Shown: piece by piece, positions 13,274-17,015 of the stretch
How the letters are laid out: each line of letters opens with the position of its first letter
How positions within the stretch are numbered: the stretch's first letter is position 1
Source: an uncultured Myxococcales bacterium
GTDB taxonomy: Bacteria > Myxococcota_A > Polyangia > Fen-1088
DNA: 58,336 nt
Assembly (NCBI GenBank): GCA_937889515.1
Contig: CALAOV010000140.1
Location: forward strand, 1 to 58,336
Reading direction: 5' to 3'
The notes under the pieces: model-generated
Seen by the model: the letters and a program-made list of their open reading frames with translations, nothing else
Databases searched by the model: none
What the model was told of the DNA's origin: nothing
Program-made: the position numbers and the translations under genes

Positions 13274-14508
<1,235 letters not shown>

Positions 14509-14529
14509 GCAGCGCTACCATCGCAATCG

Positions 14530-14916
14530 GTGAGACGGGCAATTCGGCTTTTCGCGCTGGCGGCCCTGGGTGGGCAGCTGGCCGCTATCGCCGACGCGCT
14601 GTTCGTGGAGCACGTCACCTGCGCCGAGCACGGCGACCGGATCCACGTCACGTCGCACGGGCCCGCCCCCGTCGCCCAGACCTGGGCCGGGGTCGGCGCC
14701 GCGATCGCCGGCACCGCAGACGAGCACGACCAATGTCTCCTCGACGAGGACGGCGACCAGGCCCCCGCCACCGCGCCGACGGCGCTTTGCCTGCCCGCCC
14801 TGGCCCAGGCGTCCCCGCCCCACTTCGAGCCAGGGGCGCCCGCCGTCCGGCGGGCGCCCCTCTACCGCCTCGCGCCCAAGAACTCCCCGCCAGAGAAGTC
14901 GCGTCCGTTGGTCTGA
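14530..14916 (+). CDS. Secreted His/Cys-containing small protein, DUF2946-like, ending in LAPKNSPP (candidate regulatory leader ORF)
   Basis: GTG start 8 nt after TACCAT; signal-like N-terminus; EHVTCAEHG and EHDQC; Pro-rich linker; RAPLYRLAPKNSPP. Confidence 0.7.
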   Translation: MRRAIRLFALAALGGQLAAIADALFVEHVTCAEHGDRIHVTSHGPAPVAQTWAGVGAAIAGTADEHDQCLLDEDGDQAPATAPTALCLPALAQASPPHFEPGAPAVRRAPLYRLAPKNSPPEKSRPLV

Positions 14917-14934
14917 ATCTTTCCGCGACTTTTT
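14893..14934 (+). promoter_or_regulatory. RNA hairpin spanning the leader-ORF stop codon, next to the downstream RBS
   Basis: GAGAAGTCGCG (14893-14903) pairs with CGCGACTTTTT (14924-14934, two GU pairs), followed by CTTCTG and AAGGAG RBS at 14942. Confidence 0.55.
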
Positions 14935-14953
14935 CTTCTGCAAGGAGCTCGTC

Positions 14954-16003
14954 ATGAATCGATCTGCGAATCGTCTGGTACTGCTTTGTCTGGTGTCCTC
15001 AACCGCCGCGCTCGCCTCGGGCTGCGCCACCGTCGTCGAGGGCAACGAACGCGCGCTTTTCTATTCGGCCGGCCATGGCCTCAGCAAGGATCCGGTGCCG
15101 AGCGGCTGGTACTGGCACCTGCCCTGGAACGACTACATCACCTACGACCTGCGCTGGACCTCGCACACGGAAGAGATCCACATCCATTCCAAGGACGGCT
15201 TGCACATGAACATCGACGTGGCGGTGGTGGTGCGGCCCGATCCGAGCGAGATCTACGCGCTCGACACCGAGGTGGGCCCGAAATTCTACGAAGCGGTGGT
15301 CAAGGCCGCGGTGTTCGCGGCGGCGCGCGACGCCTCGGGGCAGTTCGACCACATGCAGATCGCCACCCAGACCCATTCCTTGGAGCGCGCGATCCACGAC
15401 GCGCTGATGGAGCATCTCAAGGGCAAGCACATCGAGCTGTCGGAGGTCGCCATCCAGCACTTCGATCTGCCGCCCGAGGTCGAGATCGCCGTCAACCGCA
15501 AGGCCAGCGAAGGGCAGCTGGTGAGCGCCAAGGAGGTCGAGCTGACGCTGGCGCAGCGCGAGGCGAAGATCACCGTCGAGAAGAAGCGGGGCGTGCTCGA
15601 GGCCGAGGGGGTCGAGCGTTCGCTGCGCGCCGAGCAACAGCTCGCCGAGAACACCGCCCAGATCAAGATCGAGGAAGAGAAGCGAAAATCCGAGCTGTCC
15701 AAGGCGCAGACCGAAGCCGAAGCGATCAAGATCCGGGCCGACGCCGACGCGCACGCCATCCGGGTGCGCGCGGACGCCGACCGGGTGCGCATCCAGGCCG
15801 CTTCGCAGAACCTCTCGCCCAACTACGTGCGCATCCAGGCGCTGGAGGCGCTGTCGCACGTGATGGGGACGGGCGCTGGCAAGATGATGGTGTTGCCCGT
15901 CGGCAAGGATGGCCTGCCGGCCTATTTCGGGGCCTTCCTGAACCCATTCAGTAACTTCATGGGCGCGGTGTCCGGCTCGAACGACGGCACGGCCAAAATG
16001 TGA
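14954..16003 (+). CDS. SPFH/band 7/prohibitin-domain lipoprotein
   Basis: AAGGAG RBS, lipobox LASGC, V...ERA..GWYWHLPWN..Y, SKDGL..D, coiled-coil EAEAIKIRA, LSPNYVRIQALE. Confidence 0.88.
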   Translation: MNRSANRLVLLCLVSSTAALASGCATVVEGNERALFYSAGHGLSKDPVPSGWYWHLPWNDYITYDLRWTSHTEEIHIHSKDGLHMNIDVAVVVRPDPSEIYALDTEVGPKFYEAVVKAAVFAAARDASGQFDHMQIATQTHSLERAIHDALMEHLKGKHIELSEVAIQHFDLPPEVEIAVNRKASEGQLVSAKEVELTLAQREAKITVEKKRGVLEAEGVERSLRAEQQLAENTAQIKIEEEKRKSELSKAQTEAEAIKIRADADAHAIRVRADADRVRIQAASQNLSPNYVRIQALEALSHVMGTGAGKMMVLPVGKDGLPAYFGAFLNPFSNFMGAVSGSNDGTAKM

Positions 16004-16086
16004 GATCGACGTGAGGTCGGCGTGAGGTCGCGCGCCCGGTGCGATCTAACGCTTGGGGCAGCCTCGCGGTCGCGGCCGGGCTCGAC

Positions 16087-16473
16087 CTAGCGCCTCAGCA
16101 ACATCACGGTGGCGCCCGCGCCGCCGTCGCGCGGGCGCGCCGAGGCAAACGCCAGCACGCCCGCGCGCGCGGCGGCCGGGCTCGACAGCCATTGCCAGAT
16201 CGCGGGCCGCAACACCGACGCGCCCGCCTCCGAGTTGTGGCCGCGCCCGTGAATGACCAGCGCCGCCCTGGCGCCGCGTCCGCGCGCCGCCGCGACGAAT
16301 CGCGCCATCCCGCGCACCGCTTCGTCGCGGAGGCGGCCGTGCAGATCCAGCCGCGCCTGCACGGGGGGCTCGCCGTTGCGCAAGGCATGCAAGATCTTCA
16401 CGCTCACGTCGGGCGCGCGGCCCGTGATCATGTCGCCGCTCTCCTCGACGACGAAGGAGGGCGTTTCCACCAC
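16087..16473 (-). CDS. Smr/MutS2 C-terminal domain protein
   Basis: LDLHG, LVIHGRG, DGGAGATVMLL; GTG start just after the upstream stop codon. Confidence 0.9.
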   Translation of the reverse strand: MVETPSFVVEESGDMITGRAPDVSVKILHALRNGEPPVQARLDLHGRLRDEAVRGMARFVAAARGRGARAALVIHGRGHNSEAGASVLRPAIWQWLSSPAAARAGVLAFASARPRDGGAGATVMLLRR

Positions 16474-16475
16474 TC

Positions 16476-17015
16476 TCAGAGCTTGCGGAACGTGTCGATC
16501 ACCTGGTGGATGACCTTGCCGTTCGGATCGTGGCGCGCCCGATCGATGACGCCGATCATGGTCAGCTTCGAGTGAAACGCGACGCCGGTGTGTCCGCCTT
16601 CGCGCCCCCACTGCTCGAGCAGGCCCGCCTGCCCTTTGCCGAGCGCGTCCGGATCGCGGTATTCGCAGACCAGCGTGTCGATGGTCTGCACGCGCCCCTG
16701 CTCGCAGTAAGACGCGCCGTACGGGACCGGCTGCAGGGGTGCAAAGCCCTCCGGCGCGAGGCCCGCACCCCGCCAGGCATTCTCGACCGCATCGGTGTGG
16801 GGCGTGCCGTCGACGTGCTGTGCCGGTGCTGCCGCCAGTGGCGCGCCGGCCGCGGCAGGCGCGCCGGGCGGTGCCGCCGCGGGAGCTCCCGATGAGGGCG
16901 CGCCGCTCTGGTGGCAACCACCCGGGATCAGCAACCCGCCGACCAGCAACCCGCCGGCCAGCAACCCGCCGACCAACCGGCTGGCAAGCTCCCACCGATC
17001 ACGCTTCGTGTTCAT
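16476..17015 (-). CDS. Hypothetical lipoprotein
   Basis: Hydrophobic h-region ending IPGGC, Ala/Pro linker, small domain with a Cys pair (YCEQG...LVCEY). Confidence 0.75.
   Translation of the reverse strand: MNTKRDRWELASRLVGGLLAGGLLVGGLLIPGGCHQSGAPSSGAPAAAPPGAPAAAGAPLAAAPAQHVDGTPHTDAVENAWRGAGLAPEGFAPLQPVPYGASYCEQGRVQTIDTLVCEYRDPDALGKGQAGLLEQWGREGGHTGVAFHSKLTMIGVIDRARHDPNGKVIHQVIDTFRKL
16929..16973. repeat. 15-nt tandem repeat x3 encoding (V/A)GGLL in a signal peptide
   Basis: CAGCAACCCGCCG(A/G)C three times. Confidence 0.85.

Follow-up and report, generated by a model that had tools for sequence, protein, structure and literature searches.

A candidate ribosome-arrest leader with a putative metal site ahead of an SPFH gene in Myxococcota

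A 58,336-nt stretch of DNA from an uncultured Myxococcales bacterium (GenBank assembly GCA_937889515.1, contig CALAOV010000140.1; hereafter the window) carries a 128-codon open reading frame (ORF) directly ahead of a gene for an SPFH/Band-7 protein. Does this ORF encode a small protein that works in its own right, or is it a leader whose translation controls the gene behind it? An inspection of the letters alone, called here the sequence-only reading, had proposed a ribosome-stalling leader that senses metal or secretion and acts through an attenuator hairpin. The locus was compared with its relatives, and we put the probability at roughly 60% that the ORF encodes a regulatory leader peptide acting in cis, one member of a large family that is centred on Myxococcota and built like CruR and CutF. 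The elements of the locus are as follows.

14516..14529, forward strand: conserved sequence CTACCATCGCAATCG directly before the GTG, invariant in a three-locus alignment
14530..14916, forward strand: leader ORF (P0001), 128 aa plus stop, with GTG at 14530 and TGA at 14914-14916
14533..14604, forward strand: Arg-rich hydrophobic N-terminal helix, residues 2-25, with an AlphaFold2 predicted local distance difference test score (pLDDT) of about 95
14611..14646, forward strand: ligand motif 1, HVTCAEHGDRIH (H28, C31, H34, G35, H39), in which H28, C31 and G35 are invariant
14725..14736, forward strand: ligand motif 2, HDQC (H66-C69), in which C69 is invariant, 48 residues before xSPP
14872..14892, forward strand: candidate arrest motif APKNSPP (A115-P121), in which A, P, K, S, P and P are invariant in 42 sequences
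14883..14886, forward strand: CUCC in the Asn-Ser codons, which can pair with GGAG (14944-14947) of the SPFH Shine-Dalgarno sequence
14893..14916, forward strand: tail EKSRPLV plus TGA, a lineage-specific extension
14893..14934, forward strand: conserved hairpin with arms at 14893-14903 and 14924-14934 and a 20-nt loop
14930..14939, forward strand: T-rich tract TTTTTCTTCT, kept in 6 of 6 SPFH-linked loci
14942..14947, forward strand: Shine-Dalgarno sequence AAGGAG of the SPFH gene, whose ATG is at 14954
14954..16003, forward strand: gene for an SPFH/Band-7 protein (PF01145 Band_7) of 349 aa with a lipoprotein-like signal

The leader ORF and its family

Comparison with homologous sequences confirmed that the leader ORF is a genuine gene and not a chance ORF, and the ORF with its C-terminal motif lies, by the same comparison, far above chance expectation. 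The sequence-only reading had correctly placed and spelled out a 128-aa ORF with a signal-like N terminus, His/Cys clusters and a Pro-rich linker. In order, the leader comprises the Arg-rich hydrophobic segment RRAIRLFALAALGGQLAAIADALF, then VEHVTCAEHGDRIHV, then a Pro/Ala-rich stretch with EHDQC, and the end APLYRLAPKNSPPEKSRPLV; both VEHVTCAEHG and EHDQC are present. Two of its details required correction. It had given 14516 as the start, where there is no start codon; the start is probably the GTG at 14530, the position at which the homologues begin, and no Shine-Dalgarno sequence is visible before that GTG. It had also let the ORF end with RLAPKNSPP, when the frame in fact runs on with EKSRPLV past SPP and its stop codon sits within the 20-nt hairpin loop. 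That the conserved sequence at 14516..14529 is a promoter -10 element or a leaderless start is only a guess, and the scan called no sigma-70-like site there. The G+C content of the leader ORF is 0.74-0.76, compared to 0.60-0.69 in the flanking genes (window 14400-14900). The window genome holds two leader copies, the second being a paralogue on contig C297 (locus L002).

A word-indexed search returned 76 homologues of 70-224 residues at E <= 0.01, all of them titled "hypothetical protein" and with Polyangia as the sole taxon named. An alignment of 42 of these 76 (A1) was made into a profile and scored against 1.84 billion cluster representatives, of which 3531 matched at E <= 1e-3 and 1812 at E <= 1e-10. 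Of 401 sampled genomes of the class, 181 had a family match, spread over 68 of 162 genera. Scanning GTDB species genomes with a strict pattern gave 20 loci, and 18 of these were titled Myxococcota, Polyangia, Myxococcales, delta proteobacterium or similar. The two others (L124 and L127) come from metagenome-assembled genomes titled Planctomycetota and could represent either a true presence outside Myxococcota or a binning error.

The invariant columns of A1 are H28, C31, G35, C69, A115, P116, K117, S119, P120 and P121, with LYRL and N118 nearly invariant. The conservation of the C-terminal motif, which had been named as a check on the proposal, was borne out across the family: APKxSPP is present in 214 of 215 family proteins, most often with N (144), T (28) or S (26) as x. 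The distance from this motif to the stop codon, a second such check, likewise came out as predicted. It is short in most of the family, with one residue after Pro-Pro in 145 of 214 proteins and two or three in 41, and the 7-residue tail of the window copy is a minority form (at least four residues in 28 proteins). The first ligand motif, HxxCxx[HD]G, occurs in 211 of 214 proteins, and in 200 of 214 the last HxxC stands 46-50 residues ahead of xSPP, most commonly 48-49. A hydrophobic 15-mer (Kyte-Doolittle score >= 1.6) lies ahead of the first motif in 203 of 211 proteins.

Little else in the chain is either conserved or predicted to fold. AlphaFold2, given the 42-sequence alignment A1, returned a mean pLDDT of 66.8 and was confident only of helix 2-25 and of a small beta-hairpin formed by ligand motif 1 (strands 28-30 and 37-39); the rest of the chain is predicted to be disordered (pLDDT 50-67) and is poorly conserved between the motifs. 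The N-terminal helix is read as a signal peptide or signal anchor, with a candidate cleavage site between AIA and D.

Codon use within the motif was counted in 93 motif instances (loci L001-L104). The third positions of the motif Ala, Pro, Ser and Pro codons each carry three or four different bases, and this synonymous variation indicates that selection acts on the peptide. The motif Ser is encoded by TCN in 93 of 93 instances and never by AGY. CCT, a rare Pro codon, accounts for 48 of 714 (7%) of the Pro codons elsewhere in the same ORFs, compared to 38 of 93 (41%) at the first Pro of Pro-Pro, 18 of 93 (19%) at the second and 0 of 93 at the Pro of APK (Fisher's p 9e-16, uncorrected for relatedness). 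This excess may reflect either slow decoding or the resulting CCUCC string, which resembles an anti-Shine-Dalgarno sequence; CCT at the first Pro showed no association with GGAGG in the downstream Shine-Dalgarno sequence (p = 0.27).

Pairing in the leader transcript

The closest relatives of the window ORF are found at the SPFH-linked loci, which comprise the window (L001) and L004-L008 and come from two genera. In the window the 5' arm GAGAAGTCGCG (14893-14903) directly follows the Pro-Pro codons (14887-14892), as the sequence-only reading had described, and pairs with CGCGACTTTTT (14924-14934) over 11 bp, including 2 G-U pairs; the T-rich tract, too, was where it had been placed, running to 14939 just ahead of the AAGGAG. 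Ten-mers with at least seven T occur at 41 of 58,326 positions on the forward strand of the window. The intergenic space between leader and SPFH gene is 37 nt. Compared to an intrinsic terminator, the element has a stem of 8-11 bp (5 G-C) and a U tract, UUUUUCUUCU, but a loop of 20 nt.

Conservation of this hairpin was assessed in the six loci and was found together with covariation, the outcome that the proposal of an attenuator calls for. The hairpin starts 1-5 nt after Pro-Pro in all six, and the stem carries compensatory changes such as GTCGCG/CGCGAC, ACCGCT/AGCGGT and GTCGCT/AGCGAC. RNAalifold found 16 pairs, 5 of them changed on both sides, with 90.6% of cells paired compared to 42-58% when the 3' partners were slid, and neither the observed pairing nor the covariation score was reached by any of 500 shuffles. 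Drawn as it is from six related sequences, this covariation is supportive, not conclusive. The consensus fold also pairs CUCC with GGAG, and these four pairs are invariant, so that covariation is uninformative for them. The 51-nt core of the window hairpin had a folding z score of -2.0, and 10 of 200 shuffles folded equally well; the hairpin by itself is thus not beyond chance, and its weight comes from conservation.

The spacing around the hairpin is also held. From Pro-Pro to the SPFH start codon there are 55-64 nt in 6 of 6 loci, regardless of whether the stop codon lies one residue or six to seven residues on. It is the stop that moves: three loci have A or G followed by TAG or TGA, and the window and its two nearest relatives have Glu-Lys after Pro-Pro and then a 6-7-residue tail, the second codon after Pro-Pro being AAG in the window where the sister loci have a stop (TAG or TGA). 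As a stop one residue after Pro-Pro is the usual state in the family, loss of that stop is the best reading of the long tail, and the residues after Pro-Pro seem, from this comparison, unimportant as protein. The ligand and motif residues are intact in all six SPFH-linked copies, down to 68% SPFH identity, and in the 76 sampled genomes of the taxonomic family an SPFH orthologue (E <= 1e-40) was found in 5, in each case behind the leader (5/5).

We propose that the SPFH gene is the gene regulated by the leader. Its identity, as first read from the sequence, was upheld by a PF01145 match at E 6e-21 (75.7 bits compared to a cut-off of 23.6, residues 27-194); the lipobox LASGC was read by eye from the sequence. 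Two pieces of public run data touch the locus. An RNA-library contig of a relative with about 92% similarity extends from 229 nt upstream of the Shine-Dalgarno sequence into the SPFH gene, and an identical 179-nt piece from public runs maps inside the SPFH gene; being contigs only, neither shows a transcript end or co-transcription of leader and SPFH gene.

Other family members show pairing of a different form. Nine receptor-linked loci, all from one genus, form a 13-bp helix between the Asn-Ser-Pro-Pro-Ala codons and the Shine-Dalgarno and start region of the receptor gene. Two small hairpins lie inside this helix, which is 91.5% paired (24-40% when slid) and in which a substitution in the third position of the Asn codon is matched on the opposite strand. 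Pairing to the core of the Shine-Dalgarno sequence was then measured in the 54 loci where a Shine-Dalgarno sequence could be recognised within 170 nt, using a 21-nt window of K-x-S-P-P plus two codons. Compared to six control windows from the same ORF, the motif window paired more strongly (mean -10.0 versus -7.1 kcal/mol, Wilcoxon p = 9e-8) and ranked top of the seven in 26 of 54 loci, where about 8 were expected. Ser-Pro-Pro codons are inherently C-rich, so this pairing is possibly a by-product of the motif, though even then it would form physically.

Downstream genes and the candidate signal

The gene behind the leader was identified in 85 loci that had the motif and a readable downstream gene, a non-random sample. 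Of these, 29 came from the 30 best-scoring places in the class genomes plus the paralogue in the window genome, and 56 from 58 picked places, of which 40 were used as they came in the list of matches and 18 belong to the taxonomic family of the window. The counts exclude L003 (E 0.48), L029, L074 and L080, in which no motif was found, and L019, whose downstream DNA was too short. In 85 of 85 loci the downstream gene is on the same strand as the leader and begins 48-292 nt after Pro-Pro. The products are as follows.

44 of 85 loci: TonB-dependent receptor (Plug, mostly with an N-terminal TonB_C or CarboxypepD_reg)
21 of 85 loci: porin-like protein family without a Pfam or NCBIfam match
6 of 85 loci: SPFH protein
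4 of 85 loci: ZnuA-type binding protein
4 of 85 loci: unknown
3 of 85 loci: ABC ATPase, in two cases with an ABC-3 permease
1 of 85 loci: CobW/COG0523 GTPase
1 of 85 loci: cation diffusion facilitator (CDF) exporter
1 of 85 loci: response regulator-PAS protein, 164 nt away

The class of the downstream gene had been put forward as a further check, and each clade proved consistent in it; in most relatives of the window ORF a TonB-dependent receptor gene follows the leader, and an SPFH protein is indeed an unusual target, as had been remarked. The leader ORF heads its unit and is always the first gene. Upstream neighbours elsewhere are divergent or unrelated, among them GAPDH and an FHA-histidine kinase. 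The downstream products belong to the outer membrane, the periplasm, the inner membrane and the cytoplasm, a range that shared regulation fits better than a shared protein partner.

Judged from sequence context, zinc is most likely to be the signal and is the best single guess. It is favoured because ZnuA, AztA and COG0523 genes lie downstream and because the ligands of the leader are of the Cys2His2 type, and gene context points to zinc over copper or secretion. The top-ranking NCBIfam models were those of zinc systems, AztC for the binding proteins and AztA for the ATPases, all scoring under the curated cut-offs. Copper or Co/Ni is possible as the signal for some clades. As a general signal copper was considered and set aside, a SCO1/SenC gene being its sole hint; the other upstream neighbours examined were not metal-related.

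Several of these downstream genes have features of their own. The leader-linked receptors mostly carry an extra N-terminal TonB_C before the plug, and others carry CarboxypepD_reg (L002, L009, L011-L016, L020, L021, L024-L026, L028, L030 and many of L047-L104); the paralogue in the window genome precedes such a TonB_C-Plug receptor. Proteins of the porin-like family (L010, L017, L022, L027, L050, L052, L054-L057, L065, L066, L068, L071, L078, L083, L093, L095, L100, L101 and L103) are 420-540 aa long, some being cut by the locus end, have a signal peptide and end in GAHGAHxF. AlphaFold2 predicted a 16-strand barrel (mean pLDDT 69.4), for which Foldseek returned VhChiP and the OprP/OprO porins (E 1e-11, TM 0.5-0.6); by this model, the family may be a metal-uptake channel. 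At L047 (G110:C353) two tandem leader ORFs with the tails IA and ARSV lie directly before the CobW/COG0523 GTPase gene, with a third copy close by on the other strand (G110:C353:18671-19054). At L031 the leader ahead of the CDF exporter has APKTSPP, and the short contig also holds a convergent second leader with APKLSPP. For an exporter, the regulatory logic would have to be opposite to that for the uptake genes.

A proposed mechanism, its rivals and the flanking genes

From these elements we infer a course of events in which every step from the pause onward is conditional. The nascent chain would present the export helix, then two His/Cys motifs able to form a Cys2His2(+His) metal site, then a spacer of about 48 residues and, last, APKNSPP. 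The ribosome would pause at Pro-Pro with 14887-89 in the P site and 14890-92 in the A site, the geometry seen in CruR, at which point motif 2 would be just outside the exit tunnel and motif 1 further out or past the membrane. By binding metal or folding, the emerged chain could pull on or hold the arrest sequence, making the pause longer or shorter. A ribosome covers roughly a dozen nucleotides past the A site. Paused here, it would cover the complete 5' arm (14893-14903) and the CUCC immediately behind it, blocking the hairpin and U-rich tract so that the SPFH gene would be transcribed through, its initiation region would be open, or both. After departure of the ribosome, the hairpin would fold and expression would fall. 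Metal might relieve the pause, as proposed for CruR, or prolong it, as proposed for CutF.

The closest precedents are leaders of the DUF2946 family (PF11162). CruR (Bp2923) of Bordetella pertussis resembles the window leader in being a small first gene of its operon with an N-terminal export signal, in having a Cys metal motif at a fixed distance from an x-x-Pro-Pro near the stop (45 compared to 48-49 residues), in preceding an envelope gene, which for CruR as for most relatives of the window ORF is a TonB-dependent transporter, and in being largely unstructured by prediction with a G+C content above its surroundings. In the published accounts, the RAPP arrest of CruR controls the transporter and copper is proposed to relieve it (PMC9426467), the arrest was shown in vitro with the Pro-Pro codons in the P and A sites (PMC12992588), the DUF2946 metal motif lies 45 +/- 1-2 residues from the C-terminal motif, and higher G+C was described at the CruR locus too (both PMC9426467). 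CruR differs from the family in its RAPP, where the family has APKxSPP without Arg and with a variable -3 position, in its CxxC as opposed to HxxCxxHG plus HxxC ligands, in its copper as opposed to zinc-type context and in belonging to Proteobacteria and not Myxococcota; it differs from the window in an intergenic region of 162 nt with a Rho site, as opposed to 37 nt with a hairpin.

CutF of Rhodobacter capsulatus, also of DUF2946 (PMC9973294; bioRxiv 10.1101/2025.02.05.636593), is likewise described as an exported sensor leader with a Pro-rich C-terminal motif, and like the window it has a short intergenic region with a stem-loop between leader and next gene. According to the CutF report, the stall melts a stem-loop that shields the Shine-Dalgarno sequence, this unfolding by the paused ribosome permits downstream expression, and copper is proposed to prolong the arrest (PMC9973294). 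CutF has CxxxC and a PPP-type motif, senses periplasmic copper and controls a multicopper oxidase, whereas the hairpin in the window does not contain the Shine-Dalgarno sequence, which lies 8 nt after it and can pair only with the 4-nt CUCC. The leaders ApdA, ApdP and SecM (RAPP/RGPP) share with the window a small secretory protein with a near-C-terminal x-x-Pro-Pro upstream of a regulated gene. The window differs from them in having no Arg and an invariant Ala-Pro-Lys further upstream, and the family differs in that its targets are not protein-localisation genes and its arrest is a candidate. In attenuators based on leader translation and an intrinsic terminator, the position of the ribosome on a short ORF decides whether the hairpin with its U tract forms. 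The window differs from these in having no alternative antiterminator pairing and an atypical 20-nt loop, and it would respond to an arrest peptide in place of charged-tRNA supply.

By analogy of working, we file the family as a CruR/CutF-like leader and a divergent analogue of the DUF2946 leaders; common descent with DUF2946 is possible. PF11162 (gathering score 23.7 bits) weakly matched 8 of the 42 family members (E < 10, best E 0.0058), and the distant APKTSPP members L035 and L036 scored 28.5 and 27.8 bits, above the cut-off, with L046 at 21.5; across the window genome it gave only sub-threshold matches in unrelated frames and none at the leader. The 30 nearest ESM-Atlas clusters were 4 of DUF2946 and 26 unnamed Myxococcota clusters. 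The metal motif is HxxCxx[HD]G plus HxxC and not CxxC or CxxxC, whereas canonical DUF2946 proteins of the same phylum do carry CxxC. As a family, the leaders do stand first in operons of metal-homeostasis type (44 receptor, 4 ZnuA-like, 3 ABC, 1 COG0523 and 1 CDF loci of 85); the target in the window is an SPFH protein with no known role in metal handling. The Pro-Pro motif stands at the DUF2946-like C-terminal place as APKxSPP instead of RAPP: against the core R-(A/G)-P-P the window reads K-N-S-P-P, and the family has N, T, S, Q, G, A and others at the Arg position. In RAPP-type arrest, RSPP (Ser for Ala) is reported to be partly permissive and under-represented in proteomes (PMC12992588). 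A literature text search for the motif strings gave three matches, each to a eukaryotic protein and none in a bacterial context, and one combining zinc, arrest peptides and znuA in a natural system found nothing. Nor was DUF2946 found with zinc or myxobacteria in a text search that excluded the large CruR and CutF supplementary lists, possibly containing members. The CutF paper mentions nickel and cobalt and describes 29 clusters of sequences whose motifs are Cys, His or mixed; its main text has 0 occurrences of "zinc" and "Myxococc" (PMC9973294).

A number of observations weigh against reading the ORF as a metal-responsive arrest leader. Arg is essential in CruR, where R139A abolishes arrest (PMC12992588), and without Arg in APKxSPP any arrest would need a different mechanism. 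The window ORF gave no PF11162 match at E <= 1, and hhalign of A1 against four canonical DUF2946 proteins from the phylum returned a probability of 4.1%, on a thin template alignment. At the level of RNA, the 91-nt fold is thermodynamically ordinary (z = -0.23), the loop is atypical in its 20 nt, a standard scan found no promoter or terminator in 13900-16400, and a relaxed scan for hairpin plus T found sites about as frequent as in Markov shuffles. Motif pairing with the Shine-Dalgarno sequence was no stronger than that of the control windows in the six SPFH loci, and in a cruder test of a 27-nt motif window against a 26-nt initiation region it gave p = 0.10 (-16.6 versus -15.8 kcal/mol, 22 of 80 loci). 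The cross-locus statistics ignore relatedness, and the 85 loci were not drawn at random. As regards the signal, zinc-type genes occur in only 8 of 85 loci with sub-cut-off NCBIfam matches, which leaves the metal uncertain; the CDF exporter at L031 (genome G364) passes the NCBIfam cut-off for DmeF (Co/Ni efflux), and a SCO1/SenC copper-chaperone gene (L002 433-1101, reverse strand, E 1.3e-25) lies divergently upstream of the paralogue. We know of no link between SPFH proteins and metals.

The evidence also has to be set against other explanations of the same locus. It is unlikely, in our estimate, that the leader is a functional small protein that is exported and binds metal, for instance a periplasmic metallochaperone or buffer, and is simply co-transcribed with uptake genes, with APKNSPP serving as a docking, sorting or processing signal and the hairpin as an intercistronic stabiliser or weak terminator. 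The export helix and His/Cys ligands, the conservation at protein level and the extra N-terminal TonB_C of many receptors, which could bind the peptide, would all suit such a protein, whereas a chain that is mostly predicted to be disordered and is poorly conserved between its motifs, downstream partners in four compartments, and an ORF that is always the first gene would not. Conservation is highest at the extreme C terminus, which keeps a fixed distance to the ligands and, in 186 of 214 proteins, lies 1-3 codons ahead of the stop, and this combination is the signature of known arrest leaders.

Arrest might instead serve to monitor secretion or membrane stress, as in SecM, VemP and MifM, with the pulling force of Sec releasing the pause and the SPFH gene being induced when export is impaired. 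The N-terminal export signal and the candidate arrest motif near the C terminus accord with this, as does the target, an envelope lipoprotein of a family that is linked to membrane quality control; for HflK/C, which belong to the SPFH family, that link is established. We nevertheless regard it as improbable, since sec, yidC or other localisation genes lie downstream in 0 of 85 loci, with metal-type uptake genes there instead, and the invariant His/Cys motifs at fixed spacing would be superfluous in a pure secretion monitor. Hardly credible is an absence of any regulatory role here, with the ORF being a degenerating copy of a receptor leader and the hairpin just terminating a separate small gene: the loss of the near-terminal stop in the window copy (7-residue tail), the oddness of SPFH as a target and the T-rich tract after the hairpin could be taken that way, whereas ligand and motif residues are intact in 6 of 6 SPFH-linked copies from two genera, the spacing from Pro-Pro to the start is held at 55-64 nt, and the SPFH gene is always with the leader (5/5).

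The regulatory leader peptide is thus the explanation we prefer, and the interpretation given in the sequence-only reading is supported in that it agrees with every available comparative test. More tentatively, and with less than even confidence, we suggest that APKxSPP represents a new, Arg-independent class of arrest motif and that the family is the first nascent-chain sensor for zinc or for a broader set of divalent metals. If so, a Cys2His2-type site about 48 residues from the peptidyl-transferase centre would tune a pause that, across Myxococcota, sets the expression of outer-membrane receptors, of the new porin-like proteins, of transporters of the ZnuA/AztA type and of a COG0523 GTPase, with an SPFH scaffold added in a single lineage, tying metal status to membrane organisation. 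The metal-responsive arrest peptides known so far are two copper cases, CruR and CutF. To these the family would add a second arrest chemistry, with no Arg and with invariant Ala-Pro-Lys and Ser-Pro-Pro, useful for how the ribosome stalls and EF-P is overridden; a likely zinc input whose ligands and spacing are directly testable; and thousands of natural variants for comparative work. It would also supply a regulatory logic for many unannotated small ORFs in Myxococcota, point to the porin-like family as part of metal uptake and give a lead on when a bacterial SPFH lipoprotein is made. The candidate arrest motif without Arg, the probable zinc link and the unusual SPFH target are probably what is new here.

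Three further features flank the leader and the SPFH gene.

13274-14323, reverse strand: GAPDH gene, the divergent upstream neighbour
14377..14508, no strand assigned: perfect 40-bp tandem repeat, 3.3 copies, 100% matches, between the GAPDH gene and the leader
16087-16995, reverse strand: Smr-domain gene (Smr E 2.3e-18), convergent with the SPFH gene

With the GAPDH gene divergent upstream and the Smr gene convergent downstream, the unit consists of the leader and the SPFH gene. Smr proteins in other bacteria act on collided or stalled ribosomes, and the presence of one beside this unit is probably a coincidence. The 40-bp element is present as a single, highly conserved copy in the relatives L004 and L005, and no copy of the repeat was found elsewhere in the window genome. 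In two DNA runs (X1 and X2) contig depth at the repeat was about 3.2-3.6 times that of the flanks, and the triplication therefore looks real; the repeat may multiply a promoter or operator element.

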